A program made the position numbers and the translations under genes. Positions 24,290 through 60,253 of a stretch of 64,000 bases of DNA are shown in pieces. Below the pieces are notes generated by a model, which worked only from the letters and a program-made list of their open reading frames with translations, searched no databases and was not told the DNA's origin. This DNA comes from a virus, in IMG/VR virus record IMGVR_UViG_3300045988_182880, positions 1 to 64,000 of that record; one strand, 5' to 3'. Every line of letters starts with the position of its first letter. Position 1 is the first letter of the stretch.

Positions 24290-25687
24290 ATGAGCACTTG
24301 CGTTTGCGTTCTCAGCAACAGTGGTGAACGCTTAATGCCTACCTTCCGTCTTGGCAAGGTGCGCCATCTTCTGAAAGACGGAAAGGCTAAAATCGTTAAG
24401 CATCACCCGTTTACCATCCAGCTGCTGTATGACAGCAAAACGAACACGCAGCCTATTGAAATCTGCGAGGATGTGGGCTACAACTACATCGGCATCAGTG
24501 TGAAAAGTCAATCTCACGAGTATGTATCTGCTCAATATGATACATTACAGGACGAGAAAGCCTGCCACGACAGTTGTCGTAAGTTGCGCCGTACACGCAG
24601 AAACAGACTGCGTTACCGTAAACCGCGCTTCGATAACCGCAAGCGCGGCGAAGGTTGGCTTGCTCCTTCTTTGAGGCATAAGAAAGAACTCAATGTCAAC
24701 GTTGTCAAGATGTATTGTGCAGTAATGCCCATTACTCATGCAACAGTTGAGGTTGGTTCTTTCGACACAATGCTTGTAAAAGCAATTCAGGAAGGAAAAG
24801 CCATTCCTGAGGGAGCAGACTATCAAAAAGGTCCTCGCTACAATTTGGCAACCTTGCGTGAGGCAGTGTTCTACCGTGATAATTACACCTGCCAAGTTTG
24901 TGGACGCAAAGTCGCGGATGGTGCCATTTTACATATGCACCACATGTTCTACTGGAAAGGTCGTCACGGCGACAGCCTGAACGAACTTCTAACGGTATGC
25001 GAAAAGTGCCATACACCAGCTAACCATCAAAAAGGCGGTAAGCTTTATGGCTTCGGAGAAAATGTAAAGTTTGCCGACCTTTCCGGTGCGGCTTTTATGA
25101 ACACCGTTAGGTGGCAAATTGTCAATGAACTCTATGCTGCTTTTGGAAAAGATTTTGTCACCGTCACTTATGGCGCAATGACAAAAGAAAAGCGTATCGC
25201 ACTTCGACTTGAAAAAAGCCATAATAACGACGCGTATGCAATGGGCGAGTTTCATCCAAACTGCCGCTGTACGTTTGAACATTATGAAAAGGTAAGGCGT
25301 AATAATCGCATCCTTGAAAAGTTTTATGATTCTCGCTACATTGACATTCGTACAGGAGAAATAGCTACTGGAAAAGAACTCTTCAACGGTAGAATTAACC
25401 GTAACCACAAAAAGGATTCGGAAAATTTGCACAGATACCGTGGCAAGAGGACATACGCAGGGCATCGCGCTCTATTACGCAAAAAGGTAAACCTTAATCC
25501 GGGTGATTTAGTCTCTCTCAACGGAGAAGTTCTCGTTGTGCATAGCACTCATACCAATAAAAAGGGTGCTGTAAATGTAGAATTCAAAACACCCGGAAAA
25601 AGCGGTCAAAAATCTGCAAGCCTTAAAAAGCTTAAAATCGTAAAGACGACAGATTCCATGCATTCTGCATGGGAAAAAATATCTTAA
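24290..25687 (+). CDS. iscB: IscB-like RRXRR/HNH endonuclease with degenerate RuvC-I (IGISVKS instead of GIDPGS)
   Basis: PLMP-like N-terminus LSNSGERLMPTFRLGKVRHLLKDGKAKIVKHHPFTIQL. The bridge helix is RRTRRNRLRYRKPRF. The HNH motif is CQVCGRK...HMHH...CEKCH. RuvC-II is TVEVGSFD and RuvC-III is SHNNDAYAMG. Confidence 0.75.
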   Translation: MSTCVCVLSNSGERLMPTFRLGKVRHLLKDGKAKIVKHHPFTIQLLYDSKTNTQPIEICEDVGYNYIGISVKSQSHEYVSAQYDTLQDEKACHDSCRKLRRTRRNRLRYRKPRFDNRKRGEGWLAPSLRHKKELNVNVVKMYCAVMPITHATVEVGSFDTMLVKAIQEGKAIPEGADYQKGPRYNLATLREAVFYRDNYTCQVCGRKVADGAILHMHHMFYWKGRHGDSLNELLTVCEKCHTPANHQKGGKLYGFGENVKFADLSGAAFMNTVRWQIVNELYAAFGKDFVTVTYGAMTKEKRIALRLEKSHNNDAYAMGEFHPNCRCTFEHYEKVRRNNRILEKFYDSRYIDIRTGEIATGKELFNGRINRNHKKDSENLHRYRGKRTYAGHRALLRKKVNLNPGDLVSLNGEVLVVHSTHTNKKGAVNVEFKTPGKSGQKSASLKKLKIVKTTDSMHSAWEKIS

Positions 25688-30014: not shown

Positions 30015-32210
30015 ATGATTACAACAAAGAAGATTGACCCACGGCCATATCAGCAGAAAGCTGCTGCGGCGATTCACAGAGAGTGGGATGCCGGAAATAA
30101 GAAAACGCTGGTTGTGATGCCGACCGGAACCGGCAAAACTATTGTGTTTGCAAGCATCGTGAACGACCAGGTGGCAAAGGGCGAACACGTTTTGATTCTT
30201 GCGCACCGGGAAGAGCTTTTACAGCAGGCAAGCGACAAGCTCAAGATGGTGACGGGGCTAGAGACCGCGTTAGAGAAAGCGCAAAGCTCGGCGCTCGATT
30301 CCGATAAGATGGTCGTGGTTGCCAGTGTACAGACTCTCTCTAAGCAGAATCGGTTAATGAAGTATCCGCGTGATTATTTCGGGACTATCATCATTGATGA
30401 AGCGCATCACACGGCAGCCAAAACTTACAAGGGAATTCTCGAGCATTTCATCGATGCCAAAGTGTTGGGCGTGACCGCAACACCCGACCGAAGCGACATG
30501 AAATCCCTATCTGATATCTTTGATAGTCTTGCATTTGAATATAAGCTTCCGGATGCGATTCGGGAAGGGTATCTCTGCAAAATTAACACGAAGACAATTC
30601 CGGTCGAGGTAGACATCAGCAAGGTTCATATCAATGCCGGTGATTTCAGTGCTCAGGACCTCGGCAATGTTCTTGACCTGTATCTGGACACGATTGCGGA
30701 TGCCATTGTGCGAGAATGCCAGAACCGAAAGACTGTCATCTTTACGCCTCTGGTACGAATCAGCAAAAGACTGTGCAATATCCTCAATAAGCGAAACTTC
30801 AAGACCGCAGAAGTCAATGGCGCGTCTGCGGACCGTGAGGACGTTCTGAAAGGGTTTGACAATGGCGAGTACAAGGCGCTGACGAACGCGATGCTCCTGA
30901 CGGAAGGTTGGGATTGCCCGACCGTTGACTGTATCATCTGCTTGCGTCCTACCAAGAGCCGCAGCCTGTATGCGCAGATTGTGGGACGCGGAACACGTCT
31001 GTGTGAAGGGAAAAAGAATCTTCTCGTGCTGGATTTCCTGTGGCTGACAAAGAAACATAGTCTTTGCCATCCTGCTGATATTTTCTGTGAAGACCAGGAA
31101 GTGGCACAAAAGACCACCGATATGCTGGCGGATGCGGCACTCACCGGTTCGAATAGCCAGGAGAATTTCGGGAGTCCTGAATTGGGGCTGATTGAGGCAA
31201 TCGAGGAAGCACAGACTGAGCTGGACGAGGAAAAGCGGAAAGCACTGTGTGAACTCGAAAAGCAGGATACGATTCAGCGCAAGCTCCAGGCACAGCGTCA
31301 AAAGCCGAGAGGATTGGTTGACCCGCTGCAGTATATCTTCAGCATCGAAGCGCCGGAACTCAACGACTATCAGCCGATGTTCGAGAGTGAAAAGCAGGAG
31401 CCGTCCGATGAAATCATCGATAACATCTCGTCTTTCGGCGTGAAAGGCAGTGCCATCAAATCTCAGGGCCTTGCCGAGGCAATTTTCAAACGACTCATTG
31501 CTCGCAGAGCCAGCGGAATGGCTACCCCGAAACAGATTCGGTGTCTTGAAAGTTTCGGGTTCGTCCATGTTGGGCGCTGGACATTGCGCTATGCAAGCAG
31601 CTTTTTGGACATCATCAGTTCTCATGACTGGAAACTTCCGAATGGGTTTGACGCATCCACGCTAGACCCGGAAAAGAATACGGCAGAAGACCTCGCCAAG
31701 CTGTATCCAGACTACAAGGAGGATGAGACGAAGAAAGCACCGCGTGGGGATGCTTTCATCTGCTGCTACTACGATGCAAGCTATAATTTAGCACGCAAGA
31801 AAGTCTGCAACAGTGAAAAAGAAATGCTGAATCTGTATTATTCGCTTTTCAACAATTGCGAAGCAAAGTGCTTCTATTTCACGAAAGAGGCGGATGCCTG
31901 GATGGCAGAAAAACAGAATCTGATTGCCAGAAAGACCGGAACACCGATTCCTGCCGCACAGCCGACTCAGGCAACACCCGCAGTACCGCCTCCCTTTGTC
32001 CCGGCAGCTCCCGCCAAGAGCCACGAATATTATTGCTGCCTTGCCCGATGGGATGGGTCCTACATTGGCTATGAGATTTACAAGAGTGAGCAGGCAGCTC
32101 AGAATGCCCGAAAGCAGATTGCCCGGCGCGGTGAGACGGCAGTGTATGCCACAGTAGAGGAAGCTGAAGCGTGGGTTGACAAGCAGAAGGCCGCAAGAAC
32201 CAGGAGGTAA
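30015..32210 (+). CDS. SF2 DEAD/DEAH-box helicase (type III restriction Res-like) with C-terminal tandem RNase H1-type hybrid-binding-like repeats
   Basis: Helicase motifs are I MPTGTGKT, II IIIDEAHH, III GVTATPDR and VI QIVGRGTR. The C-terminus has two repeats ending FTKEADAWM and VEEAEAWV, resembling the Cauli_VI / RNase H1 N-terminal domain. Confidence 0.7.
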   Translation: MITTKKIDPRPYQQKAAAAIHREWDAGNKKTLVVMPTGTGKTIVFASIVNDQVAKGEHVLILAHREELLQQASDKLKMVTGLETALEKAQSSALDSDKMVVVASVQTLSKQNRLMKYPRDYFGTIIIDEAHHTAAKTYKGILEHFIDAKVLGVTATPDRSDMKSLSDIFDSLAFEYKLPDAIREGYLCKINTKTIPVEVDISKVHINAGDFSAQDLGNVLDLYLDTIADAIVRECQNRKTVIFTPLVRISKRLCNILNKRNFKTAEVNGASADREDVLKGFDNGEYKALTNAMLLTEGWDCPTVDCIICLRPTKSRSLYAQIVGRGTRLCEGKKNLLVLDFLWLTKKHSLCHPADIFCEDQEVAQKTTDMLADAALTGSNSQENFGSPELGLIEAIEEAQTELDEEKRKALCELEKQDTIQRKLQAQRQKPRGLVDPLQYIFSIEAPELNDYQPMFESEKQEPSDEIIDNISSFGVKGSAIKSQGLAEAIFKRLIARRASGMATPKQIRCLESFGFVHVGRWTLRYASSFLDIISSHDWKLPNGFDASTLDPEKNTAEDLAKLYPDYKEDETKKAPRGDAFICCYYDASYNLARKKVCNSEKEMLNLYYSLFNNCEAKCFYFTKEADAWMAEKQNLIARKTGTPIPAAQPTQATPAVPPPFVPAAPAKSHEYYCCLARWDGSYIGYEIYKSEQAAQNARKQIARRGETAVYATVEEAEAWVDKQKAARTRR

Positions 32211-32215
32211 TCATA

Positions 32216-32769
32216 TGCGTACAGACAAAACGGCAAGCCACATTTGCTACGAGCTTGACCACGATGTGCAGGAATATGCGAAACGGCTTTTAGCCAAAAA
32301 AATTCTGCACGCGGCACAGCAGGACAATGCCGTTCCGTTCCCTAATGAAACGGCAAAGAGAATTGCCGAGACAGCGGTGTTTCTGACCGAACGCCTCGCA
32401 CTTTTGTATGAGCTGAATTATGGATTCCGAGGCGTCCAGTTCAGCACTTTCGGAGAACAACCTGCTGTATACACTACCATGGTCCAGCACAATGCCCCGC
32501 TGTATGATGAGCCGATGCTTGGACGGGCCTACAACCTTGCCAACTACCTTACTGCTGATAATGCGGATATCAAAGAATCTGCTTTGATGAAGCACAAAGT
32601 TTTGGCAGCAATTTATAGTGCCGCTGCACACATGAAAGGGCAGACTCCGGAGCGGGGAAAAATCTCGGTTCAGAGCCAGCTGTTTGTGTCTACGGCAGTT
32701 GAGTTGTTTGATGGTCTTTTGAGTGCAGCAGTAGAGAAAAAGAACAGCGGCAATAAAACCGCCGCATGA
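32216..32769 (+). CDS. Hypothetical protein (184 aa) between helicase and NADAR genes
   Basis: AGGAGG RBS. The 5-nt intergenic gap suggests translational coupling. Confidence 0.45.
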
Positions 32770-32790
32770 GATAGAGAATAGGAGATTCGC

Positions 32791-33282
32791 ATGATTCGAT
32801 TCAGAAAAGATACCCCTCGCTATTGGTTTATGAGCAACTATTACCCTTGCGAATTTGTGATGAATGGGATTCGTTACAAGAACGCCGAGGCAGCATTCCA
32901 GAGTCACAAGGTCCCGCTGGAAGAGCGCAGACAGTTTGCGGACATGCCACCGGCTTCTGCCAAGCGTTTTGGCCGCAATGTGGCTATCCCCGCAAACTGG
33001 GACAAAACTCGGGACGATGTAATGCGCCGCGTGGTGATGGCTAAATTCGAACAGAATGAAGACCTCAAGCAGCGTCTCCTCGAAACGGGTACGCAGCCTA
33101 TTGAGGAAGATACCACCAGCTGGCATGACAACTATTGGGGCAACTGCCACTGTCCGAAATGCCGGAACATCCCAGGCCAGAATCGGCTTGGAACTATTCT
33201 GATGGAAACGAGGGATAAATTGAAAAAGCAAGCTGGCAGCCTACACGATACCGGGAATGCGTTCGGAAGGAACGACCTATGA
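32791..33282 (+). CDS. NADAR (YbiA-like, DUF1768) ADP-ribosyl hydrolase family protein
   Basis: It aligns along its full length to E. coli YbiA. The N-terminal WFMSNYYPCEFVMNGIRYKNAEAAFQSHK block matches the NADAR motif and a conserved AKFEQN is present. The C-terminal GQNRLGTILMETRDKL matches YbiA GKNRLGYLLMELREQL. Confidence 0.85.
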   Translation: MIRFRKDTPRYWFMSNYYPCEFVMNGIRYKNAEAAFQSHKVPLEERRQFADMPPASAKRFGRNVAIPANWDKTRDDVMRRVVMAKFEQNEDLKQRLLETGTQPIEEDTTSWHDNYWGNCHCPKCRNIPGQNRLGTILMETRDKLKKQAGSLHDTGNAFGRNDL

Positions 33283-33808
33283 TGTTCCGACTTACTCGGC
33301 ACTGAAAGGTGCAATGGATTCTATCTACAAACATGTCGGTATGGAAGCAATTCCTTCGGCAGTGTACATTCACTCTCCCATTAAAAAGACCCGTATCCTG
33401 CTGCGAAACATTGAGAATATCGGAGGAATACGGTCCCGCGAATGCTTAACGGATGTTTGCTACACGGTCGTTGTACGAATCGTGAGAATGGACAACATGG
33501 CCTTGGAGAGTGACCTCGCAGTGCAGTACAGAAATTTCTTAGAATATGTTTCCGATAGCTGTGGGATGGGATATCCGTATCTTGGCGTGATGGAAACACC
33601 CATGTATTTTCATCCTGTGGCGGAAACGGAAATTCTTCCAACACTGCCCATTACCGCTGACTTGTGCAATATGCCTTTGACACCGGATTATACGAACAAA
33701 TTTGAACCGGATTTGGTTTGTAGGCATCTTCACATTGAGAATGGTATCATCGATTTTACGAAAGGGGAGTATTTTCGCTGCTATGGATATTCTGAATGCG
33801 CTGGTTAA
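33257..33808 (+). CDS. cas5: Cas5 (Cas5d/Cas5c, type I-C family), N-terminally short; overlaps NADAR gene by 26 nt
   Basis: TYDVPTYSALKGAMDSIY matches Cas5d SYSVPTYQALKGIAESIY, and DVCYTVVVRI matches DVHYQVKAHF. An in-frame stop at 33221-33223 fixes the start. Confidence 0.7.
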   Translation: MRSEGTTYDVPTYSALKGAMDSIYKHVGMEAIPSAVYIHSPIKKTRILLRNIENIGGIRSRECLTDVCYTVVVRIVRMDNMALESDLAVQYRNFLEYVSDSCGMGYPYLGVMETPMYFHPVAETEILPTLPITADLCNMPLTPDYTNKFEPDLVCRHLHIENGIIDFTKGEYFRCYGYSECAG

Positions 33809-35729
33809 GCACTATGATGCGATGGCAGCAGCTGGAAATGCAACGCCTTTCGGCTGGACACACAAGTTTGCTCAGTATGCCGTCGAACTAAACGATGACG
33901 GGGAAATCGATAGGATTTTCGCTCTCGGTGATTTATCCGATAAAAAGAACAAAGGCGAGGAATTCGAGATGCCAACACGCAGGCCACGGTCTGGCAAGCT
34001 GCCGATTCCGTATGTGTTCTGTGATGATGCGGAACATCTTCTCGGCAAAGTCGGTGAAGCGAGCAATCTTGTTCGATACACTATGATGCGCGACGCAGTC
34101 TTTATGCTGCGTGACCTGTTGGGACATTCTAAAGCCTTAGATGTCGTCTACAAGTTCTACGAAACGTGGGACCCAGAAAAGGCGCTTGACAATAAATGTG
34201 TCAGCGACGTAATGGAGGCGAAAGGCCAGGAAAAGAAAACCTTTATCCTGTTCTACAATGGCGTTCCAGTTTTTGATGATGAGACATTTCGCAAAAGCTA
34301 TGCGGCGATTGTCAATAAATATGGGGAAATGCCGATTGATACACTCAAGGGCGGTGAAATTGCTCTGTTGCCGGAACCTATCAGGATTCGAAGCATGATA
34401 AGCGGCAATATCGGGTTTAAGGCTCGCTTGTTTCGAGCCATCACGGCATGGGGAAACAAAAAGAATGGCCCGGTCACAAACACTCTTTTGTCCAACAACA
34501 AAGCAAACACCGAGTATTTCGGACGTCAGCAGGGCAACGCCATCCCCATCACAATGCAAGATGAACATAAGATTTACGAAGCGGCTACAGATTTGCTCAG
34601 CTCCAAGCATCGGTTTTCGGTCCCGGTCACTTCACAGTCGCTTTATTCAAAGAACCAAATCATCTGGTCGGATGATATGCCGACAAAGCTAGAAGACGCG
34701 GTCATTGACCTGTGCTGCTGCCGTAGTGATAAAGCCAAAATTATCTCTCAGGCAAATGAATCGGGTTCTGAGACCACTATCAGAATCCTTGAAAAAGCAA
34801 AACTCTATCAGGGACGAATCACGGTTCTTTCGGACACTGAAAAAAACTTAGTCGTCAACGTTTGGAATCTTGATATGAATGATAAGGGATGTTCTGCATC
34901 CAGCTTTACACAGATGACGCTTGGCGAGCTGCTTGGAAACTTTGCCAAGCATTACACTGACATGGAAATTGACCGAAGCCAGACTTGCCGAGATGCGGAT
35001 GGAACCAGCCGAGATTTTGCAAGAGCCATCAACATCTACAACTCACTTTTCGCCAAGAACAGTGATGGAAGCACGAATTCTTTCAACAACGCTCTTTGGA
35101 AACAACTGAGTATCAGCATTTATTCCGGAACAAAGTATCCGGAGCAAGTCCTTTCCCTGGCACTGCTTCGGTCCTGCCGTTTGCTTCAGCAAAATAAGAA
35201 AGGCAAAGAAAATCGCATCACGGCGTCTTTGGCCGGTATCACAAAAGCGTTCTTGATTCGCAATTACGGGGAGAATATGACCATGGGACTCGACCAGAAC
35301 AACACCAGTCCTGCTTATATCACGGGACGAATCTTCGCGCATATGGAAAGTGCGCAGAGAAAGATTGACCCCAACAACCAAACCACTTACGCTAAACGGT
35401 TCTTTGAGCGAGTTATGATGAACCCGGCAAAAACCATGCCGGAGCTTCACAAGAGTTTCCTTCTTTTGAAGAACAAGGCTAAAGCGAATGGCATGAGAGG
35501 TCTTTATAATTCCTGCGACAAGAAAATTATGGCTCTTATCGATATGCTGGATGGCAACTATCCCGACCATCTATCCGAAAAGCAAAAAGGTGAATATCTC
35601 GTCGGATACTATCAGCAGCGAAGCGCAAACATCAAGGATGCCGAGGAGAAGAAAAACCGGAAAGCCGCCAAAATTGAAACTAATAATACGGATACTGCGA
35701 CAACCGTTGCAACACAAAAGGAGAAGTAA
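33783..35729 (+). CDS. cas8c: Cas8c (Csd1) large subunit, type I-C
   Basis: AAAGGGGAG RBS before the ATG at 33783. MDILNALVKHYDAM...PFGW...ELNDDGEI...PIPYVFCDDAEHLLG matches the Cas8c N-terminal consensus ILQALYDYYER...P.G...iD.dG...vP...lwD...YvLG. Confidence 0.8.
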   Translation: MDILNALVKHYDAMAAAGNATPFGWTHKFAQYAVELNDDGEIDRIFALGDLSDKKNKGEEFEMPTRRPRSGKLPIPYVFCDDAEHLLGKVGEASNLVRYTMMRDAVFMLRDLLGHSKALDVVYKFYETWDPEKALDNKCVSDVMEAKGQEKKTFILFYNGVPVFDDETFRKSYAAIVNKYGEMPIDTLKGGEIALLPEPIRIRSMISGNIGFKARLFRAITAWGNKKNGPVTNTLLSNNKANTEYFGRQQGNAIPITMQDEHKIYEAATDLLSSKHRFSVPVTSQSLYSKNQIIWSDDMPTKLEDAVIDLCCCRSDKAKIISQANESGSETTIRILEKAKLYQGRITVLSDTEKNLVVNVWNLDMNDKGCSASSFTQMTLGELLGNFAKHYTDMEIDRSQTCRDADGTSRDFARAINIYNSLFAKNSDGSTNSFNNALWKQLSISIYSGTKYPEQVLSLALLRSCRLLQQNKKGKENRITASLAGITKAFLIRNYGENMTMGLDQNNTSPAYITGRIFAHMESAQRKIDPNNQTTYAKRFFERVMMNPAKTMPELHKSFLLLKNKAKANGMRGLYNSCDKKIMALIDMLDGNYPDHLSEKQKGEYLVGYYQQRSANIKDAEEKKNRKAAKIETNNTDTATTVATQKEK

Positions 35730-35731
35730 CA

Positions 35732-36694
35732 ATGTCTGAACTCGTTAAGAATCCTATCACCATTGTTCTAGCGTTTGATGCGCAGAACTGTAATCCCAAT
35801 GGGGACCCCGACAACGACAACAACCCGCGTCAGTTTGAGGATGGAATCGGGTACATGTCGTCCGAAAGCATCAAATATAAGATTCGCAGCTACATCCGTG
35901 ACAAGGTCTTGTTTGACGGTCTGGAAAAGAACAGCTATGCACTATATTGCAGCCCCGATACTTTTTCCATTGAGCGCAGCGTTAAAGAGTGCCTGGAGCC
36001 TATCATCGGCAAAAAAACCAAAGGCATCCCCGATGACCAACAGCTGGAGGCTTATAAAGAGCTGTGCCGGTACTACTATGATACTCGCATGTTTGGGCTT
36101 GTGAATACGAGTTATTCCAACTGCAGCCTTCTAAGCCGCATCAAGGGTGCCTGCCAGGTATCTATGCCGATGTCCTATGACCCTATCGAAATCATCCCGA
36201 TGACGATTACTCGCTGCTGCGTTGCTTCCGATGCTGAACGCAAAGGCGAAGATAAAGGCGCCAAGAAGGGCGTCAGTATCGACGAAAGCGACGATGGAGC
36301 CGAAAAGAAGACGAAAGACCGCATGATAGGCCGTCGAAGCATTATCAGATATGGGCTGTATCACATGAGCATTCAAATCAACAGTGCAATGGCACAGCGT
36401 AACGGTGTTACGATGGATGACGTTAATTTGTTGATTGATGCGCTGCAGCATATGTTCGAGGAAGATATGAGCTCCAGCAGAGCCCTAACGCTGCGTAAGT
36501 TGATTGTCGTTGAGCACACCAAACCGATGGGAAATGCTTATCGGGACACCATTGAGCGGGCACTGGCGGCTCGACTGAAGCAACCTAATGATGCACCTAC
36601 ATCTTATGAGGATTACGAGGTGACTTATCACCGCGAAATGCTGCCTGATGAGGTCAAGGTGACTGAGTATAATTATAACAGTCAAAGCGTTTGA
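35732..36694 (+). CDS. cas7: Cas7 (Csd2) backbone subunit, type I-C
   Basis: IVLAFDAQNCNPNGDPDNDNNPRQFEDGIGYMSSESIKYKIRSYI carries the hallmark NPNGDPD...PR...G...S...KRKIR motif of Csd2/DevR. Confidence 0.85.
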   Translation: MSELVKNPITIVLAFDAQNCNPNGDPDNDNNPRQFEDGIGYMSSESIKYKIRSYIRDKVLFDGLEKNSYALYCSPDTFSIERSVKECLEPIIGKKTKGIPDDQQLEAYKELCRYYYDTRMFGLVNTSYSNCSLLSRIKGACQVSMPMSYDPIEIIPMTITRCCVASDAERKGEDKGAKKGVSIDESDDGAEKKTKDRMIGRRSIIRYGLYHMSIQINSAMAQRNGVTMDDVNLLIDALQHMFEEDMSSSRALTLRKLIVVEHTKPMGNAYRDTIERALAARLKQPNDAPTSYEDYEVTYHREMLPDEVKVTEYNYNSQSV

Positions 36695-36990
36695 CAAAAA
36701 CTAATAATTGCTGGTCAACACAACTGTATAAGATTGAAAACACAATAGTCTGCCTCTTGTTGATACGTTGCAAGCGAGAACCTGCGGGACTACAAAAGTG
36801 ATGCACTATGCTACATATGATTGAAACGATATTTTGCTATGGTGCGAAAATGCAGCGGCTGCAGGTAACACAACTGCCGTAAGAAAGGCTACAAAGCGGC
36901 CCATGAGGTCGCGTAAGATTATGCGCCCATCTGCAAACGCGGGTGAACGTTCTTTTTTGCCAAACCCAAAAATAAAACGTGATAAAAACC

Positions 36991-37018
36991 TTGCACATCT
37001 GTGCGAATCAGATATAAT
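36991..37018 (+). promoter_or_regulatory. Promoter with conserved box (f): TTGCAC-16-TATAAT, spacer atCTGTGCGAATcaga
   Basis: Motif family. It precedes the UvrD-like helicase. Confidence 0.5.
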
Positions 37019-37104
37019 AACCCTAATAAGATAAAAATTGTGCCCTGACGGCATCTGAACTGGATGCTGCCGGGGTATTTTTTGTTGTTGAGGAGATTAG
37101 AGTT

Positions 37105-39825
37105 ATGACACTGAACGACTTGTCAAGCGAACAGCAGGAATTCGTACATTTGGCATTGTCGGGCAAAAACGTATTGTGTGACGCCTGCATCGGCAGCGGA
37201 AAAACATCGACTATCAACGTACTCTGCGATGCATATCCACCAGAACGGCGTATTTTGTACTTGACCTACAACCGATTACTCAAACTTGATGCCAAAGACA
37301 AAATCAAGAATGGCAATGTCCTGGTTCAGAACTATCATGGATTTGCAAGCCTGCTGCTGAACAAAAAGGGAATCCGGAATTGCGGACAGGGCGAACAGCT
37401 TGCTATGGTGCTGGAAAAGAAGGTTCCGATTCCGCCGATTGATACCCTTATCATCGACGAATACCAGGATATCAATGACGAGATTGCGGAACTGCTCAAA
37501 TATATTCGTTCTCAGAATCCGGGCCTTCAAATCGTCGCAGTGGGCGATATGAAGCAGAAAATCTACGATGATACAGCGCTGGATGTCTGGGAGTTCATGC
37601 AGGATTTTCTCGGCCGCCATGAACAGGTGGTTTTCACGAAATGCTTCCGTATTTCTCATGACTTGGCAGAACGACTCGGCAATATCTGGGGCAAGACCAT
37701 CAACGGCGTAAATGGTTCCTGCATCGTGGAACAGATGTCGGTCGATGAGGTAACAGAGTTCCTGGATAAACAGAACCCGAAAGATGTTTTGTGTCTGGGC
37801 GCTCGAATCGGAGCCATGACAAAGGTGCTCAATGACCTGGAAAATCGGCCCGGAAACCTCTATGACAAGCATCACGTCTATGCAAGTATCGCGGACAATG
37901 ACGGGGATAAGGCGGTAGCACCTTCCTCAGATGTTGGTATCTTCACAACATTTGACGGCAGTAAAGGTATGGAGCGACCTATCTGTGTCGTGTTCGATTT
38001 CACTGAGGAATACTGGTCGTCCCGCACAAGCAAGCCAATGTCACGATATGAGATTCTTCGGAATCTGTTTTGTGTCGCAGCAAGCCGAGGAAAGCAGCGG
38101 ATTATCTTCGTGAACTATGACCATCCGTTGAGCGATAAATCCCTGATGACTCCGACTGGAATGAATTGCGTGTTCCGGCATCCGTTTTCGTTCTCCGAGA
38201 TGTTCGACCACAAATTCATCGAAGATGTGGATGCTTGCTATAAGCTGCTGGAAGTCACACCGATTGAGCACAACGACAATACGACCATCGATGTGCAGGC
38301 AGCGGATGCCATGATTGATTTATCCCCCTGTATCAGCATCTATATGCAAGCAGGGTTCTTCAACTACTACGACATTGATGACGCACTTGCATATTATATG
38401 GACCTGCATGATGATATGCAGTATTTGAAAATCAAGAAAGGCGCAACGGTCGAGGATAAGGTTCTGCTGCTCACGGCGCTTGAAACGAATCAGTGCCGGT
38501 ATGTAAAACAGGTCAAGCCTCCTTTTGTGAACGCAAAAGCCAAAATGTCGCTGAGTATGCGGCTTGGCACCGTGTTCACTCCTGATGAGTATGTTCAGGC
38601 ACGCGGAGATATCGACATCCATACTAATGACCATAAAGTGATTTATACTTCGGGCCTTGCGGATGTCGTAAAGAACAACACCGTCTACTGCATCAAGTTC
38701 ATCAGCAGTCTGGCACACAAGCATTTTCTGCAGTGTGCGTGTTCTATGATTGCGCTGGGTCTTCCATATGGCGTTGTCTGGAACGTGAAAAGTAACCTGA
38801 TGTACAGCGTAAAAATCAAGGATAAGGACGCTCTGATTGACGCAATCCTCAAGTGCATCACGAAACGAGCTTACAACGGCGCGGATTATTACACCTGCCG
38901 AAAAGGCTTTGTACAGGATACGGCATCGATTATCGACCGCTGGACTGACGACGGATATGCGGAAGAACCCACCGCCATCACTTCCGGCGACGGTATCGCC
39001 ATCATCAAGCAGGGAACTCGCTATTTTGTGATGGACGGGGCACGCCGAAACACTCTGAACGATAATTTTGGGCTTGGTTTTGCCGATGTGAAAGACGCTT
39101 GTCTTGCTTATGCGAAGAGTTGCGAACTTCAAAAGACTGTGGACCATGATTCTCCTTATTCCGAAGTCGAGTTCTGGCTCGACCAGAACAAGGCGTTTGA
39201 GGAATACATGACACAGGTGAGTCACGAAATCACACAGCACAAAGAAGGACCGTATGCAAAGTACAAGTCTTTCGCTACACCCGTTATCCGAAAAATGCTG
39301 GCCGAAAAAGGACTTGCCATCACATTCCCGGAAAAGGTCCTCATCAAGGTTTGGAAGATGCGCCGCGCCGAAGATGCCATGTATCAGAAAATCGAAGAAG
39401 CAAATAAGCAGAACAATTCCAATGTGCCGCTCGATGAGGCGTTCTTTGACTCTGAACTGGTGGATTCCGTTGAGGGAAATACCAAAAGTGCCAAGGCAAA
39501 AGCCAAACCCCAAAAGGAATCCGCATTGCCGTTTTCCAAGTACGGTGCAGATGAAAAGAAGAGTTACCGTGTTGTGAAGAGTCCTGAACTTTCAAAGCCC
39601 AATCAGCCGCGCTATGTTGTGGTCGAGACGGCTACCGATAAGGTCCTGGACAACGCCAACGGATACGGATACCTATCCTATCAGGCTGCCTGGAAAGGGT
39701 ATTCGTACAAGAGCAAGCATCATCTGGATGGGGCAAAGAAGCCTATGAGCAAGAGCGCAAAAGAACGGGCTAAGAAAAAGGCAGCTTTCTTCTCGACCGA
39801 TTCGGAACAGCTCAGTTTCGGCTGA
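37105..39825 (+). CDS. UvrD/Rep-like SF1 helicase with 450-aa C-terminal extension
   Basis: Motifs: I GSGKTST, II IIDEYQD, III VGDMKQKIY and V TFDGSKGMERP. The ASRGKQRII segment resembles motif VI. The extreme C-terminus has a basic tail. Confidence 0.75.
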   Translation: MTLNDLSSEQQEFVHLALSGKNVLCDACIGSGKTSTINVLCDAYPPERRILYLTYNRLLKLDAKDKIKNGNVLVQNYHGFASLLLNKKGIRNCGQGEQLAMVLEKKVPIPPIDTLIIDEYQDINDEIAELLKYIRSQNPGLQIVAVGDMKQKIYDDTALDVWEFMQDFLGRHEQVVFTKCFRISHDLAERLGNIWGKTINGVNGSCIVEQMSVDEVTEFLDKQNPKDVLCLGARIGAMTKVLNDLENRPGNLYDKHHVYASIADNDGDKAVAPSSDVGIFTTFDGSKGMERPICVVFDFTEEYWSSRTSKPMSRYEILRNLFCVAASRGKQRIIFVNYDHPLSDKSLMTPTGMNCVFRHPFSFSEMFDHKFIEDVDACYKLLEVTPIEHNDNTTIDVQAADAMIDLSPCISIYMQAGFFNYYDIDDALAYYMDLHDDMQYLKIKKGATVEDKVLLLTALETNQCRYVKQVKPPFVNAKAKMSLSMRLGTVFTPDEYVQARGDIDIHTNDHKVIYTSGLADVVKNNTVYCIKFISSLAHKHFLQCACSMIALGLPYGVVWNVKSNLMYSVKIKDKDALIDAILKCITKRAYNGADYYTCRKGFVQDTASIIDRWTDDGYAEEPTAITSGDGIAIIKQGTRYFVMDGARRNTLNDNFGLGFADVKDACLAYAKSCELQKTVDHDSPYSEVEFWLDQNKAFEEYMTQVSHEITQHKEGPYAKYKSFATPVIRKMLAEKGLAITFPEKVLIKVWKMRRAEDAMYQKIEEANKQNNSNVPLDEAFFDSELVDSVEGNTKSAKAKAKPQKESALPFSKYGADEKKSYRVVKSPELSKPNQPRYVVVETATDKVLDNANGYGYLSYQAAWKGYSYKSKHHLDGAKKPMSKSAKERAKKKAAFFSTDSEQLSFG

Positions 39826-40134
39826 TTATTACTGCCGATGAGAGGGGGTGTATCAAGCGCAGCTTCAGGACGTTGCGCATTGTTTTCCAACACAAATAAA
39901 ATCACAAATCGGAAAATCCTTCTGAATATCACATAACAAATATCAGACATATGCCCACATAGGCAGAAAGGAATTACAACCCCTGCGCCGGGAAAGCCCA
40001 CTCCGTGAGGGGTGGGATGAAAGGCGCGTTGGAAATTTCAAGAAATTCATAAGGTGTTAACCGATTTTGTAGCAATTTGTGGTATAATATGCTATATGAT
40101 TAGAGATTATAGACGAACTGCAACAACTGTGTCT

Positions 40135-40500
40135 ATGGTGAATTATCATTTTGTGTTTTGCCCGCGCTATCGAAGAAAAATATTCTTAATAGATGGTGTA
40201 GAAGCGCGATTCAAAGAACTTGTACACCAAATTTGCGAGCAAAACGATTTTGATATATTAGCTATGGAATGCTACATTGACCATTGCCACTTGTTTTTGA
40301 ATGTTCCTCCAACAGTAAGTCCCTCTGATGTCATGCGTATCATTAAAACGAATACATCAAGGGTGCTGCTCAAGGAATTTTCTGAAGCAATTAAAACAAA
40401 AACCATTTGGACACGCAGTTATTTTGTCAGTACCGCCGGTGATGTATCTGCTGCTATGATACGCCGCTATATAGAAACCCAAAAGACTCGAGGTGTGTAA
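40135..40500 (+). CDS. tnpA: IS200/IS605 TnpA (Y1 HUH transposase)
   Basis: MVNYHFVFCPRYRRKIF, HUH motif DHCHLFL, and catalytic Tyr region RSYFVSTAG. An extended -10 TGGTATAAT lies upstream. Confidence 0.8.
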   Translation: MVNYHFVFCPRYRRKIFLIDGVEARFKELVHQICEQNDFDILAMECYIDHCHLFLNVPPTVSPSDVMRIIKTNTSRVLLKEFSEAIKTKTIWTRSYFVSTAGDVSAAMIRRYIETQKTRGV

Positions 40501-42043
40501 TTTGCCATACGGTCAAAAATCAAAAATGGATACCTTTATCCTGACGTTGCCGCTTATTACGAATTCGCACGATGAGGCGGAACTGTATTCCAGCTTTGAA
40601 AAATATTGCAAAGCATATAATTGGCTCGTTCAAAAAACCACGGAGATGTGGCATCAGGTGCGCAAAACTCGCAAATATCGCGATTTGGTTTCTGCTATTG
40701 CTGATACGGCTCCAAAAAGCAAAGAACGAAAAGCATTGTATAAGGAACGTACAAAGCTGCTCGAATCGTACGGTTTCACAAGCGTATCGTTCGAGAAGAA
40801 GCTTAAAGCGTATGCGAAATACTACCATCTGCATTCAGCCATCACGCAAAAGATTGCCGCTCGTGTCTGGGATTCGTGGTACAAGTTCTTCTATAAGAAC
40901 GGAAAATCCGTCCATTATAAAAAGCTAGACGATTTCGTTAGTTTTGCGGGCAAAACCAACAATACAGGCATTCAGTTCCTCGACAATAATGGTTTGTATA
41001 TTAAATTCCGTGGACGCTGCATTCCGGTTAAGCTGCGCAAAGGCAATACCGCATGGTATCAGCAGGAAGCGCTCAAACGGAAAGTTAAGTTCTGCACCAT
41101 CAAGCGCGAAATGATTCGGGGACAATGGCGCTACTTTGTACAGCTCGCCTTGGAAGGCAATCCCCCCATCAAATGCGACAGTAACGGCGTTATGAAGCAT
41201 CCTGTTAAGCAAGGCCGCATTGGTATAGATATCGGAACACAAACCATCGCGTTTAGCGGTAATGATGTTTGCGACCTCCGTGTGCTTGCACCGTCTGCTA
41301 TAGCAGAAGTCCGCAATGGTCTCACTAAGGAAATCGCTCGCGTTATGCGGCAAATGGACCGTTCGCGCCGGGCGATGAATCCGCAGTATTATAACGAAAA
41401 CGGAACCATCAAACGGCTAAAGCGCAAGAATGGACATAAGCAAATTCGTCATTGGAACTATAGCAAAAACTATTATCGGCTGCTGCATAAATTGCAGGAT
41501 TTGAACCGTAAGCTTGCTGCCGTACGCAAGACGGAACACTATATTCTTGCCAACGAGTTGCTGACATACGGCAACGAATTCGTGGTTGAAGATATGAACT
41601 ACAAAGCCTTGCAGAAGCGCAGTAAGAAAACGAAAATCAACCCCAAAACTGGTAGAGCGTATACCAAAAAGCGATTCGGTAAATCTATCGGTCGCTGTGC
41701 CCCGGCTTTGTTTATCGCCATTTTAGGACAAAAAGTAAAGTGCAGTGGCGGCAACATTATCAAGGTCAGCACTTTTGAAACGAAAGCCTCGCAGTTTGAC
41801 CACACCGATGACAGCTATACCAAAAAGAAATTGTCCCAGCGTTTTGCTAAACTCTCCAACGGAACCGTTGTCCAGCGGGATATGTATTCCGCATTTCTTT
41901 TAACGCATTTAGATGAAAGCCTTCAAGGCTACGATAAAGAAGCCATCGATAAAGATTTTCAACAGTTTATGAAACTGCACAACGAGGCAAAAGAACGCTT
42001 GCAAAACAGCCACGAGTGGCTGCCTTCTAGCGTAGGATTCTGA
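40493..42043 (+). CDS. tnpB: TnpB-like RNA-guided nuclease (IS605 OrfB), overlapping tnpA end
   Basis: RuvC-I is GIDIGTQTIAF, RuvC-II is VVEDMNYK and RuvC-III is QRDMYSAFLL. Confidence 0.8.
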   Translation: MCNLPYGQKSKMDTFILTLPLITNSHDEAELYSSFEKYCKAYNWLVQKTTEMWHQVRKTRKYRDLVSAIADTAPKSKERKALYKERTKLLESYGFTSVSFEKKLKAYAKYYHLHSAITQKIAARVWDSWYKFFYKNGKSVHYKKLDDFVSFAGKTNNTGIQFLDNNGLYIKFRGRCIPVKLRKGNTAWYQQEALKRKVKFCTIKREMIRGQWRYFVQLALEGNPPIKCDSNGVMKHPVKQGRIGIDIGTQTIAFSGNDVCDLRVLAPSAIAEVRNGLTKEIARVMRQMDRSRRAMNPQYYNENGTIKRLKRKNGHKQIRHWNYSKNYYRLLHKLQDLNRKLAAVRKTEHYILANELLTYGNEFVVEDMNYKALQKRSKKTKINPKTGRAYTKKRFGKSIGRCAPALFIAILGQKVKCSGGNIIKVSTFETKASQFDHTDDSYTKKKLSQRFAKLSNGTVVQRDMYSAFLLTHLDESLQGYDKEAIDKDFQQFMKLHNEAKERLQNSHEWLPSSVGF

Positions 42044-55115: not shown

Positions 55116-55683
55116 CGAGCACTGTGCTTTCGACAGCAAGCCAATCAAGCGTATACAGTGGGTGCGTTTTCTTGGGAAGGACTAACCATAGGGGCAAAAA
55201 GATTCCATTGCCGACCTGTACGCAAAGAGTGGTGCCGTGGTTTCACAGGTGGGTTCGGCTAAAGATTTGCTGACTTTCCTGCAATCTGCCGGAACCACAA
55301 GGCATTTTTGATGCGCTTGCCCAAACCACTAGATATAGTGGTATCTTAATGTTTGTTTACAATTTAGACACTATATATTGTGTCTTTTCATTGACCGGAT
55401 ACCACATATATGGTATAATACAATTGTTCTCAGGAAGAGGAACGGCTCCTGAGACATCAAGGTTTTCCTTTCCCCAATCTTGGTCGCATGGCTTCATTTG
55501 AGCTGACACAGGTGAAGCGTGAAAATCATCCGTTTCATAGTAATATCCTTCCTTTCTTACCTCTTTATTTCCCATTTGGCGCGGGTAACTCCGCGCCAGC
55601 CGTTCAAACAAACAGCCTCCACGCGGCGGACGGTGGACAACAGATGTTTCCGTGTTCCGGGCATCTGGCTAATGTTTGTATTT

Positions 55684-55759
55684 GCTGGTTTAGCTCAGCT
55701 GGTAGAGCAACTGATTTGTAATCAGTCGGTCATCGGTTCAAGTCCGATTTCCAGCTCCA
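55684..55759 (+). tRNA. tRNA-Thr (anticodon UGU); acceptor stem with two U-U mismatches
   Basis: Cloverleaf: D-arm TAGCTCAGCTGGTAGAGCA, anticodon loop TTTGTAA, T-arm GGTTCAAGTCC, and CCA encoded. Confidence 0.7.
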
Positions 55760-56232
55760 GACGCTATCCGTTGGATGTATCGAAATCACATGATACGATG
55801 CTATACACAACATCTGGCGGACAGCATGCCACCCATTAAGGCGGCCTCCTCGTGGCGGGTGGTGGACAGTGACTCTAGCAGTTGCTGACGAATGTCTTAA
55901 AAGCATGCAGACGTACGAGCATCCCCGTTAAGCCGGGGCGCAGCCAGACGCGACACAGCCGTAAAGGCGGGACTGCTGCACGGCAACTGGTAAGTTTCGC
56001 CGCAGTCTCACACACAGCCCAACGACAACCGTTAACCCGATTTGACAGGGAATCAACGACAGGGCTCAAAATTTGAAGTTGACCAACACCCAAGCGCTTT
56101 CTTGGATTCTCACGCATAGTCAACGATGAGATTCGCAAGATTGTCAGGTGGTGTAAAGATGGCGTTCGGGGCCGACTACCTCCTAAACGAACATCATGGC
56201 GGGGCTAAGTGAGGGTTCACCCGCAATCTTAT

Positions 56233-56307
56233 GCAGGTATCGTATAACGGCTAATACTCCGCCCCTCCAAGGCGGAGACGCGGGTTCGACCCCCGCTACT
56301 TGCTCCA
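56233..56307 (+). tRNA. tRNA-Gly-like (anticodon UCC) with C at position 33
   Basis: The cloverleaf fits, the acceptor is gcaggta/tacttgc, and the T-loop is TTCGACC. The anticodon loop is CCTCCAA. Confidence 0.45.
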
Positions 56308-56581
56308 CACGTCGCAGTCACCGTACACCACGACGTTAAACTGGTGAGCATGGTCCACATGTGGTCCGCTGTCGAATGCCAATGGACAGCCTATAAAAGA
56401 ATCGGCAAACAGGTGCTGTGCCTGAGAGTATCCGAAAGTCCCGGTGTCAGTCGCGAATGAGACCGGAAAACGGCGGAGAGGGTACAATACAGACTCCGTC
56501 GGCGTGGCTGCCGAATGGTGCTGGACGCGGGGTTGGCTTCCTCGCTGAAGGGGTGATAACCAGCATAAAACACCCTGCCGT

Positions 56582-56657
56582 GCTAGTGTAGCTCAGTTGG
56601 TAGAGCAGCTGATTCGTAATCAGCAGGCCGTCAGTTCAAATCTGACTATTAGCCCCA
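56582..56657 (+). tRNA. tRNA-Thr (anticodon CGU)
   Basis: Canonical cloverleaf. The loop is TTCGTAA and CCA is encoded. Confidence 0.8.
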
Positions 56658-56696
56658 TTACCCGATGAAACAATAAATAGAAAGGAGATGAAACTT

Positions 56697-57080
56697 ATGG
56701 AACAGGCAATTATCAATGTTGAAGGTACGACTACCATAGAAACCGCTGCAGCAGCAAAAAAGCTGATTATGATGTTTGGCAACCGGAACATCCGCGCCAT
56801 CGCTGTCAACCGTGTAAACGACAAGAGCGACGAGGTCATTGTTGAACTTGATTTCGTACCGGGTTTGGCACCGCATCTGCACGGCTTCACGCTTCAGGTC
56901 AATGGCTTGACCTGCGGTTATGCTGGCACCGGTCCTTCCAATCTGTATGAAGTCCTGCAGGCGGCTGGCGTGAGTGAAGCTCAGGTAGCACGCGAGGACA
57001 TCACTCAGAAGAGCACAAAAACCATTCCTCTGCGCCTGGAACGTGCAGTCACACAGTACGGCGACTTCCAGTTTGCGTAA
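56697..57080 (+). CDS. Hypothetical small protein inside tRNA cluster
   Basis: AAGGAG RBS. A terminator hairpin lies at 57090-57108. Confidence 0.4.
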   Translation: MEQAIINVEGTTTIETAAAAKKLIMMFGNRNIRAIAVNRVNDKSDEVIVELDFVPGLAPHLHGFTLQVNGLTCGYAGTGPSNLYEVLQAAGVSEAQVAREDITQKSTKTIPLRLERAVTQYGDFQFA

Positions 57081-57110
57081 AGCTATTTGGCGGGCTTGAC
57101 CCGCCATCAT

Positions 57111-57186
57111 GGAGGGATAGCTTAGCTGGATAAAGCACCTGCCGCAAAGCAGGGTATCGATGGTTCGAGGCCATCTCCCTTCTCCA
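57111..57186 (+). tRNA. tRNA-like with non-canonical anticodon arm (5-bp stem + 6-nt loop CGCAAA, or 4-bp + 8-nt loop)
   Basis: Acceptor, D and T arms and CCA are canonical. The anticodon arm is 16 nt rather than 17. Confidence 0.35.
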
Positions 57187-57546
57187 TCCAGACACCCTTT
57201 CGCTTCCTTTCGCCAAAGGTATCTGGGGTATTGTACTGCATTGCGTGTAGTACGGCCAATCAGGCGCAGAACTCCGAAACCATACCACGAAGAATTTTAT
57301 CCTCTCCGCGCAGCATGGACATGCGATTTTACGGGGATAAATTCAAACCGAAATTGTGTCGAGTGGCGAAGACGGTTGCGGCACTGGCGAAGCACATATC
57401 TGCTTCGTCAACCATCTATGAGAAAGCCTCCACGTGGCAGATGGTGGGCAACGCAGCAATACTGCGGCTGATTTCTCTCCGAATCGGTATCTGAATAAAT
57501 GCAGATAAATAGACGAAAAAATCAAAAAAGCAAAGGAGTACACAGC

Positions 57547-58680: not shown

Positions 58681-58760
58681 TTTGCCATCCTCTGACGGTA
58701 ATCGATAGTTTTTTCTCCTTGGAATGGGGCGAGGTTTTGGCCTCGCCTCATTTCTTTTGT

Positions 58761-58849
58761 GGTCAGGTGCCCGAATGGTTTAAGGAACTGGTCTTGAAAA
58801 CCAGCGACGCTAAAAACGTCCGTGGGTTCGAATCCCACTCTGACCGCCA
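58761..58849 (+). tRNA. tRNA-Ser (anticodon UGA), class II
   Basis: Long variable arm. The loop is CTTGAAA and CCA is encoded. Confidence 0.8.
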
Positions 58850-58962
58850 GATTTTGCCGGGGCTTCCCGGCTTTTTGTTTTTGTGAGTAACACAAGAAAA
58901 TGAGTTGCTGTATCGAATAGAGCAAAGTATACTAAGGAAAAAGCAGATTGAGAGGAAACGCC

Positions 58963-59667: not shown

Positions 59668-59696
59668 GCATGGGCCTGCTATTATTTTTATGAAAA

Positions 59697-59726
59697 GCCT
59701 TGACTTTGCCTTTTACACATTGTATA
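59697..59726 (+). promoter_or_regulatory. Strong sigma-70 promoter TTGACT-17-TATAAT
   Basis: ttgactttgccttttacacattgtataat. This is a near-consensus match. Confidence 0.5.
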
Positions 59727-59763
59727 ATTAAGACACTGAATTTGATGAAAGGAAAAACGCACG

Positions 59764-59883
59764 ATGTTTGCTGCTATGATGAACAAACAGAATAAGTTGC
59801 AAGAGCTGTGGAGCAATTCGAATCTCTTCGGCTGTTTTGTGTTGTCTGTTTGTGCAAATCATAGTGCAATGATGGTTGAATAA
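59764..59883 (+). CDS. Small ORF (39 aa, MFAAMMNKQNKLQELWSNSNLFGCFVLSVCANHSAMMVE) with own promoter and terminator
   Basis: The terminator GCACCTGTCAGACGCACAACGCCTGATGGGTGCTTTTTT follows. Confidence 0.25.
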   Translation: MFAAMMNKQNKLQELWSNSNLFGCFVLSVCANHSAMMVE

Positions 59884-60223: not shown

Positions 60224-60253
60224 TGCCCGGCAGAGTATCATCTGCCACTTTTG

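Follow-up and report, generated by a model that had tools for sequence, protein, structure and literature searches.

The effector proteins of a type I-C Cascade need a CRISPR RNA (crRNA) to guide them, and an operon that encodes such proteins with no evident repeat-spacer array beside it raises the question of where its guide comes from. We addressed this question in a 64,000-nucleotide stretch of viral DNA (positions 1-64,000 of IMG/VR record IMGVR_UViG_3300045988_182880; the window), in which the gap that follows cas7, at 36695-37104, had been described as holding no CRISPR array. The gap measures 410 bp, as reported in that preliminary description: cas7 ends at 36694 and the next open reading frame (ORF), which encodes a UvrD-like helicase, starts at 37105. 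We conclude, with a probability of roughly three in four, that the gap represents the trailer end, now eroded, of a small CRISPR array from a type I-C variant system carried by a phage. By homology with the arrays of related phages, its derivation from a CRISPR array is shown.

The window carries 15 transfer RNA (tRNA) genes, as detected by an Rfam scan, together with PHROG-type phage genes, and genes 99% identical to its cas7 are found on viral contigs in IMG/VR (47-154 kb) and on contigs from human-gut metagenomes that reach 267 kb. These features indicate that the window belongs to a large gut phage. Its Cas7 falls in a phage clade with members at 99, 90, 79, 68, 64 and 47% identity, and the identity of this clade to bacterial type I-C Cas7 does not exceed 34%. 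The relatives used below are ordered by the identity of their Cas7 to that of the window: the closest clade at about 99%, L005 at 90%, L013 at 79% and L007 at 64%. A megablast search of window positions 33000-40000 against INPHARED phages and PLSDB plasmids gave zero matches.

In agreement with the preliminary description, no regular CRISPR array and no repeat-spacer periodicity were found in the 64 kb by a direct-repeat search, by Tandem Repeats Finder or by an unfiltered, family-specific covariance model. This model, R1, was built from 12 repeats of L013, L007 and L009, and was run with filters off on both strands of the window (128 kb in total). At gathering thresholds, none of the CRISPR-DR families of Rfam matched the window, the Rfam matches being confined to tRNAs and an HDV-like ribozyme. 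The type I-C layout, a hairpin followed by a tail of the form ...ATTGAAA(C/T), is seen in the family repeat, GTAGCAGCCnnnGAGGCTGCGTAAGATTGAAAT, which we take to match the canonical type I-C repeat. Two words in the gap had been likened to type I-C repeat tails lying out of register, and this is what they are, although their positions required correction: AGATTGAAAAC lies at 36731 rather than 36733 and TGATTGAAACG at 36818 rather than 36826, so that they are 87 nt apart instead of 93. The motif GATTGAAA occurs five times on the plus strand of the window, where about 1.5 copies are expected per strand, and is absent from the minus strand; two of the five copies lie inside the gap. The gap is nevertheless richer than the isolated words for which it had been noted, as the two best R1 matches in the window, a unit at 36893-36925 and a handle-only unit at 36726-36740, both sit there. 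We distinguish the following units:

36708..36740, plus strand: U1, a degenerate repeat that has lost its hairpin and kept the handle TAAGATTGAAAA, with its R1 match at 36726-36740.
36795..36827, plus strand: U2, a putative degenerate repeat of the canonical 33-nt length, read as AAA, a weak 17-nt hairpin and ATATGATTGAAAC.
36858..36891, plus strand: U3, a tentative decayed repeat in which a GCAG/CTGC stem appears to be followed by CGTAAGAAAGG; it abuts U4 with zero spacer.
36893..36925, plus strand: U4, the terminal (trailer-end) repeat, with the hairpin GCGGCC-CATGA-GGTCGC, then GTAAGATT and a diverged tail, ATGCG.

U4 is the best R1 match in the window (36896-36920, 21.6 bits, E 0.002) and combines a 6-bp hairpin, GCGGCC/GGTCGC, with the GTAAGATT motif, only its last five bases being diverged (GATTATGCG in place of GATTGAAAT). 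The hairpin is present in both the minimum free energy and the centroid folds; across nine repeats, four terminal-type units included, 98% of stem cells are paired and compensatory changes occur at two stem positions. Moreover, U4 is kept in all 31 of the related loci that cover its position. U1 gives the second best match (15.7 bits, E 0.12) and has kept only TG.TATAAGATTGAAAA of the repeat. U2 lies below the R1 threshold; its identification draws on a rare 9-mer, GATTGAAAC, of which the window has two plus-strand copies, the other being at 18168 in an unrelated 5' untranslated region (UTR), and on a MAFFT alignment that pairs it with the handle ACGTAAGATTGAAAT of a one-spacer unit in L005. 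U3 and U1, at a distance of 150 nt, have GGT(C)AACACAACTG..TAAGA in common. Folding of the entire 5' region gave a stability that does not exceed that of shuffled sequence (z = -0.23).

The units lie directly 3' of cas7 and on the same strand, and thus adjoin the cas genes in the same orientation as an array would. The window does not contain the three or more near-identical direct repeats of a canonical array, since U4 alone has both hairpin and handle and the other units are partial; nor does it have the regular period of 64-69 nt seen in the arrays of relatives, the unit starts at 36708, 36795, 36858 and 36893 being separated by 87, 63 and 35 nt. The window has 65 nt between U2 and U4, compared with 37 nt in L005 and 22 nt in L270, and its U2 and U3 are 30 nt apart. 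We considered whether intervals of 54 and 65 nt represent spacers lengthened in 6-nt steps, and dropped this idea because the lengths (54, 65, 37 and 22 nt) vary freely among close relatives.

The origin of these units becomes clear from the related loci. In L013, a true array of seven repeats, comprising a degenerate first repeat and six copies of the family repeat, lies between cas7 and the UvrD-like helicase gene; it has a period of 67-69 nt, spacers of 34-36 nt and repeats that score 28-53 bits with R1, and is followed by a terminator, a promoter and a leader hairpin. When the window, L005, L013 and L014 are aligned, U4 falls on the last repeat of the L013 array, and the terminator, promoter and leader hairpin align as well, which identifies the gap as the trailer end of an array. 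The earlier view that nothing array-like follows cas7 does not hold, because the homology between the gap and the trailer of the seven-repeat array extends to every alignment column. L005 shows a smaller arrangement: after cas7 and an AT-rich leader come the handle ACGTAAGATTGAAAT, a spacer of 37 nt and a repeat of the U4 type, and its two GTAAGATT motifs are 68 nt apart. In more distant relatives, arrays of three to five repeats of the same family are found; those of L009-L012 precede cas3, and that of L007 lies 6 kb downstream. The L014 array is probably also upstream of cas3, the contig beginning inside its terminal repeat.

The two halves of the gap differ in their conservation. Between the window and L005, blastn homology ends with cas7 and restarts exactly at U4; the stretch between U4 and the ATG of the helicase gene shows 84% identity, and the 5' half of the gap is essentially unalignable. 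Even inside the 99% clade the 5' half varies, as L270 lacks 46 nt between U2 and U3, part of U3 included, and the handle of U1 is mutated in L255. On this comparison, the 5' half tolerates change and is under relaxed constraint.

A second one-spacer mini-array lies about 270 nt upstream of cas5 in intact members of the clade (L001, L003, L004, L005 and 13 others). It occupies L001:7012-7130 and L005:6940-7070, just after the RlaP gene, which is the site of the upstream array in L009. It consists of TATAAATAG(T/C)GCAAGATTGAAAT (a first repeat reduced to its handle), a spacer of 40-42 nt, a hairpin repeat with GTAAGATTAT that R1 detects at 30.1 bits (E 4e-5), and its own terminator. The spacer starts with GTCACAAAGGACGG, and L001 and L005 share its first 14 nt despite a synonymous divergence (dS) of about 0.5 between their cas genes; the hairpin differs between the two by a compensatory change. 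The 20-kb neighbourhoods of 30 close relatives contain only two mini-arrays, namely those flanking the operon. The preliminary description had named a genuine repeat-spacer unit, either within the gap or beside the operon, as the finding that would speak against it. Such units do occur in relatives, the upstream mini-array of L001 and L005 included, and the window itself shows degenerate forms only.

The elements that follow U4 align with those of the relatives and separate the array remnant from the helicase gene:

36928..36958, plus strand: intrinsic terminator of the cas/array transcript, with the stem CATCTGC-AAAC-GCGGGTG (36928-45) and a T-run, identified by a terminator scan and folding.
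36991..37018, plus strand: phage promoter for the helicase gene, TTGCAC, ATCTGTGCGAATCAGA, TATAAT (TTGCAC-N16-TATAAT).
37041..37084, plus strand: promoter-proximal hairpin and T-run in the helicase 5' UTR, ahead of the ribosome-binding site; attenuator-like as read from the sequence, with a predicted regulatory function.
37105..39825, plus strand: UvrD/AAA_19-type helicase of 906 aa, assigned by Pfam, by PHROG (DNA helicase) and by synteny.

The terminator is conserved in L005 and L013, with changes that are wobble-compatible. The promoter box reported earlier, TTGCAC-16-TATAAT at 36991-37018, is real, but it drives the helicase gene and not an array. It is an exact match to the motif TTGnnnnnnnGTGCGAWTnnnnTAHAAT, which has 14 plus-strand copies in the window where 0.1 are expected (199, 8386, 16057, 16224, 18111, 21025, 23601, 26495, 28912, 29646, 36991, 43715, 45021 and 50316), and it is identical at 27 of 28 positions in L005 and also present in L013 and L014. 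The stem at 37041-37084 covaries among the window, L005, L013 and L014. A GC-rich hairpin with a T-run lies 20-70 nt downstream of the promoter copies at 29646, 36991, 43715 and L001:4646, and such hairpins could be attenuators or small RNAs. The helicase gene is syntenic with cas7 in the close clade and in L013-L015.

Several further observations were made on this region. The predicted start of the helicase leader RNA, at about 37026, reads ATAAGATAAAAAT (37026-37040), which is identical at 9 of 11 positions to the crRNA 5' handle AAGATTGAAAT. Comparable leaders are conserved in L013 (GTAAGATAAATAA, 2477-2492) and L014 (GTAAACTACAAAAT, 6236-6250), and the other 13 promoters of the window have none; the handle-like leader could be a coincidence, another repeat relic or a Cascade-binding leader. 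An insertion of 1.3-1.8 kb separates the U4 terminator from the helicase gene in L003, L257, L260, L261, L265-L267, L270 and L272, so that the helicase starts at 12712 in L003 compared with 11372 in L001. In L005 the helicase gene (11296-14017) is split into two ORFs, for residues 1-152 and 151-906, through a frameshift or an assembly error.

Upstream of the gap, the operon itself is damaged. The type I-C effector set of Cas5d, Cas8c (Csd1) and Cas7 (Csd2) is present, with Cas5 truncated:

33224..33808, plus strand: cas5 (Cas5d-like), truncated at its 5' end and corresponding to residues 43-236 of a 236-aa orthologue (tblastn and blastn against L001 and L005).
33801..35729, plus strand: cas8c (Csd1), full length, Pfam Cas_Csd1 3.5e-69, 98% identical to L001 over residues 1-642.
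35732..36694, plus strand: cas7 (Csd2), full length, Pfam Cas_Cas7 1.4e-53.

The premise of an intact Cascade-only locus is thus not upheld, because cas5 is missing its first 42 codons. The lost residues 1-42 include strand beta1, as judged by alignment to the solved Cas5d structures 3VZH and 3KG4; there is an in-frame stop just upstream of the remnant, and its first in-frame ATG, at 33257, has no good ribosome-binding site. The remnant matches Cas_Cas5d at 0.0012, below the cut-off, and the full-length Cas5 proteins of relatives match Cas5d as well as the solved Cas5d structures. Window positions 31785-33231 correspond to L001 2-1448 and positions 33224-39827 to L001 7493-14094, with an 8-nt overlap at the junction, 33224-33231. 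Compared with L001, the window has lost 6 kb, and with them the RlaP gene and the upstream mini-array as well as the cas promoter (L001:7295, with the same motif as the helicase promoter) and cas5 codons 1-42. By this comparison, cas5 of the window was shown to be truncated by a deletion that also removed the upstream guide unit and the cas promoter. At the same junction, a NADAR-domain gene (32791-33282, 7.8e-27) has acquired its last 14 codons from the fusion with cas5.

With the Cas3 protein of L014 (Pfam Cas3-like_C_2) as query, neither the window nor L001-L004 gave a match, and L005 yielded no more than a relic of 53 aa, which indicates that the close clade is Cas3-less, and no cas1, cas2 or cas4 was found among the scanned ORFs flanking the operon or in the precomputed Pfam lists of the relatives' neighbourhoods. 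A ResIII helicase gene at 30015-32210, considered as a candidate Cas3' because the Cas3 proteins of relatives are similar in size, was rejected, as it has no tblastn match to the Cas3 of L007, L009 or L014. An AcrVA2-like gene (Pfam PF26125, from precomputed annotation) lies upstream of cas3 in L007, at 3801-4742. Between L001 and L005, both of which are without cas3, the ratio of non-synonymous to synonymous divergence (dN/dS) of cas5, cas8 and cas7 is about 0.1 with dS of about 0.5, and the Cas3-less Cascade has thus been under purifying selection.

We compared 32 related loci (L001-L006, L253-L276 and L284) with window positions 32791-36694. In 17 of the 32, cas5, cas8 and cas7 are all intact. 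At least 10 different deletions, which all come in from the NADAR side, reach into cas5, cas8 or cas7, with end points at cas8 residues 515, 543, 548 and 563 and at cas7 residues 69, 130, 162, 225 and 252; they form a nested series, every member of which stops short of the 3' end of cas7. In addition, L270 is frameshifted, and cas8 of L284 is cut at residue 388, beside a transposase gene. The interval from the NADAR gene to cas5 ranges from about 0.8 to 5.9 kb, and the region looks like a hot spot of recombination or deletion. Protein clusters in which Cas7 is fused to NADAR, recombinase, RRXRR or Csd1 fragments agree with the deletion series.

We propose the following history for the locus. 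The gap would comprise two or three repeats in decay, U1, U2 and perhaps U3, of which mainly the 3' handle, ...TAAGATTGAAA(C), is left, followed by the well-kept U4, after which the terminator would end the cas/array transcript and a separate promoter and hairpin would drive and regulate the helicase gene. In the ancestral state, as in L013, pre-crRNA would have been read through from cas7 until transcription halted at the terminator, and Cas5d would have cut at the 3' base of each repeat hairpin, as in the type I-C biology of Nam 2012 and Garside 2012 (as cited in PMC10651486). In the close clade, cas3 would then have been lost and the arrays would have been reduced to one-spacer units that flank cas5-cas8-cas7. 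The window genome would have gone one step further, through the 6-kb microhomology deletion of the upstream unit, the cas promoter and 42 codons of cas5. Most likely, the module in the window genome is no longer a working crRNA-guided complex, and the block of U4, terminator and promoter probably survives mainly through its position beside the retained helicase gene, which it serves. With the Cascade damaged and the upstream guide unit deleted, the puzzle of a Cascade without a guide largely dissolves.

This history has to be weighed against other explanations of the same relics, of which the most serious is that a mini-array still works here. The U2 handle (ATGATTGAAAC), running through 36828-36892 to the U4 hairpin or over 30 nt to the U3 stem, would load the Cas3-less Cascade as a CRISPR interference (CRISPRi)-like repressor that binds a host or phage gene without cutting it. 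Repression by nuclease-less phage systems has been proposed (Al-Shayeb 2020, PMC7162821), and the selection on the Cascade genes in the absence of cas3, the canonical 33-nt length of U2 and the well-formed one-spacer units that relatives carry on both sides of the operon, each with a handle-only first repeat, would all fit such a role, as would the conserved spacer start and the compensatory hairpin change of the upstream unit in L001 and L005. In the window, however, cas5 has no beta1 and the cas promoter is gone, the distance from U2 to U4 is conserved neither in length nor in sequence, and many natural variants have deleted part of the operon. No target came to light above chance either. 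All spacers and pseudo-spacers, concatenated, gave zero matches in INPHARED at E <= 1; exact 18-mers of the window and L005 pseudo-spacers occur in IMG/VR only on their own contigs; and a seed-anchored scan of the window and L005 returned chance-level prefixes of 9-12 nt without a TTC protospacer-adjacent motif (PAM). A match of 14 of 15 seed positions at L005:15303, inside a coding region and without a TTC PAM, was judged to be chance. As a degenerate pattern, the conserved upstream spacer finds only relatives in IMG/VR and nothing in GTDB representative genomes, and no partial match of a spacer to the promoter of a cas, toxin or defence gene rises above chance in the window and L005, weak matches being hard to detect. 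We therefore consider a working mini-array unlikely. An extended version, in which the Cas3-less Cascade has been domesticated as a DNA-binding repressor with a fixed guide, U2...U4 or the helicase leader feeds or titrates the complex and the deletions form an on/off polymorphism, seems to us slightly less likely still.

Guides might also come from elsewhere, either from an array outside the 64 kb of the phage genome or from host arrays, which would make the gap irrelevant. The position of the array does vary within the family, as seen in L007, L009-L012 and probably L014; the window is only part of its genome; and other huge-phage contigs hold two or more small arrays. The latter were met among the IMG/VR matches listed for the looser pattern AGATTGAAA...AGATTGAAA; among the matches listed for this pattern and for the 14-mer GCGTAAGATTGAAA most were chance, and the looser scan incidentally gave contigs with real small arrays of this repeat family. 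Against this stand the neighbourhoods of the 30 close relatives, which show the two flanking mini-arrays only, and the finding that no IMG/VR contig has the in-register pair GTAAGATTGAAA N48-62 GTAAGATTGAAA. Among GTDB representatives, a search for paired TAAGATTGAAA gave 38 loci, none of which has an R1 match, and thus no bacterial array of this repeat family and no host array with this repeat; moreover, guides from elsewhere would leave the repeat relics in the gap unexplained, and we regard this origin as distinctly improbable. The same lack of a bacterial array bears on the idea that U4 acts, independently of the phage cas genes, as an RNA decoy or viral crRNA-like regulator of a host type I-C Cas5d or Cas7. 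U4 is indeed a solitary and structurally intact mimic of a repeat, kept at all 31 loci even where the phage cas genes are deleted; a type I-C RNA anti-CRISPR has been shown experimentally (RacrIC1; PMC10651486), and viral crRNA-like regulators have been described (bioRxiv 10.1101/2024.10.29.618823). U4 nevertheless ends the cas transcript and has no promoter directly upstream, the divergence of the phage Cas7 from its bacterial counterparts marks the repeat as one of a phage-specific lineage, and nearness to the helicase terminator and promoter also explains why U4 is retained, so that a decoy is very unlikely. Finally, chance AT-rich words in an ordinary intergenic region, with no CRISPR ancestry, might be suspected because U2 and U3 alone stay under the model threshold and GATTGAAAC recurs at 18168. 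This reading is refuted by the L013 array, the R1 matches and the trailer alignment, and its probability is next to nil: the two top matches of 128 kb lie within 200 nt of each other directly after cas7, the gap corresponds by column to a real array trailer, and the one-spacer unit of L005 is in an exact 68-nt register.

Some observations also weigh against our own conclusion that the gap is an eroded trailer end. The Cas3-less Cascade has been selected for much of the history of the clade, and in the intact relatives it may be active to this day. In the lineage of the window, the U4 hairpin has undergone a compensatory change, from A-T to G-C, which hints that the RNA is under selection in its own right, beyond any selection for the adjacent terminator. 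In the window cas8 and cas7 are intact, and a truncated Cas5 or a host Cas5 might serve with them. The genome is likely to exceed 130-260 kb, of which 64 kb are seen, and another array may sit elsewhere in it. Nothing in the window directly supports a CRISPRi-like repressor or an RNA decoy; both alternatives are nonetheless kept alive by the purifying selection that has acted on the Cas3-less Cascade and by the one-spacer units conserved in intact relatives.

Comparison with described systems places the locus among the type I-C variant CRISPR-Cas systems of huge phages (Al-Shayeb et al. 2020, Nature 578:425; PMC7162821). Like these, it has phage-borne Cas5d-like, Cas8c and Cas7 proteins with no Cas1, Cas2 or Cas4 seen beside the operon, its close clade is Cas3-less with compact arrays and a non-Cas3 helicase as neighbour, and it occurs in a huge phage of the human gut with many tRNAs; the comparison with the two phages of that paper is one of features. 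Unlike them, distant members of the family (L007, L009 and L014) carry a Cas3-like gene (Pfam Cas3-like_C_2), and the system of the window is partly deleted. The UvrD-like helicase gene also differs in having its own promoter and in co-occurring with Cas3 in L014, which makes it a neighbour and not a shown replacement for Cas3. The remnant further recalls lost type V-A loci, at which a divergent last repeat remains (Shmakov et al. 2023, bioRxiv 10.1101/2023.03.03.530964): here too the trailer-end repeat persists with a diverged 3' tail, the repeats upstream have decayed and relatives preserve the intact state. Unlike those remnants, the relic of the window is in a phage, beside intact cas7 and cas8, and is linked with a terminator and a promoter that serve the gene downstream.

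Regulatory mini-arrays and crRNA-like RNAs (CreA, CreR and crlRNA; Shmakov 2023; Liu et al., bioRxiv 10.1101/2024.10.29.618823) offer another comparison, in that two repeat-like sequences, one of them strongly degenerate, surround one spacer in a cas locus and are conserved among related loci. This likeness is clear for the upstream unit of L001 and L005 and for the downstream unit of L005. The window differs in having no partial promoter match, a 65-nt spacing that is not conserved and no well-formed upstream unit, that unit having been deleted; furthermore, the system is phage-encoded and has no Cas3 at all. With RNA anti-CRISPRs (Racrs, which are solitary repeat units and include a type I-C example; Camara-Wilpert et al. 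2023, PMC10651486), U4 has in common that one repeat-like hairpin stands alone in the genome of a virus. A typical Racr comes after a promoter and is unlinked to cas genes, whereas U4 ends a cas operon and descends from the operon's own array; the only strong promoter, at 36991, lies downstream of it, and no matching host repeat was found in GTDB representatives. The relic fails the defining tests of a canonical array, of a promoter-targeting regulatory mini-array and of a Racr.

Outside the cas locus, the window contains three RNA-guided nuclease or transposase genes of IS200/IS605 type, at 8463-9923, 24290-25687 and 40054-42043. They are, respectively, a TnpB (OrfB_IS605 and Cas12f1-like TNB), an IscB-like gene (RRXRR and HNH) and an IS200 Y1 TnpA followed by a 516-aa PHROG-506 transposase; the latter has no Pfam match, and a homologue with 78% identity adjoins the cas8 break of L284. 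The 15 tRNA genes form a cluster spanning 55684-61741. An Rfam HDV-F-prausnitzii ribozyme at 55599-55679 on the plus strand (48.4 bits, gathering threshold 44) directly precedes the first of these (55684-55756), and this arrangement suggests that ribozyme-assisted processing of tRNA 5' ends may operate in the phage.

Taken together, our results remove the anomaly of a Cascade without a guide, because the guide locus is there in eroded form and the operon is truncated. The locus is the decay of a known kind of phage CRISPR system and not a new, guide-less one, and the window itself holds nothing new in kind. The series from a seven-repeat array through one-spacer units to relics, together with the at least 10 deletions in gut populations, documents how such a system shrinks and is lost. 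In addition, the intact relatives L001 and L005 are the place for asking whether a nuclease-less Cascade with a single conserved guide represses.

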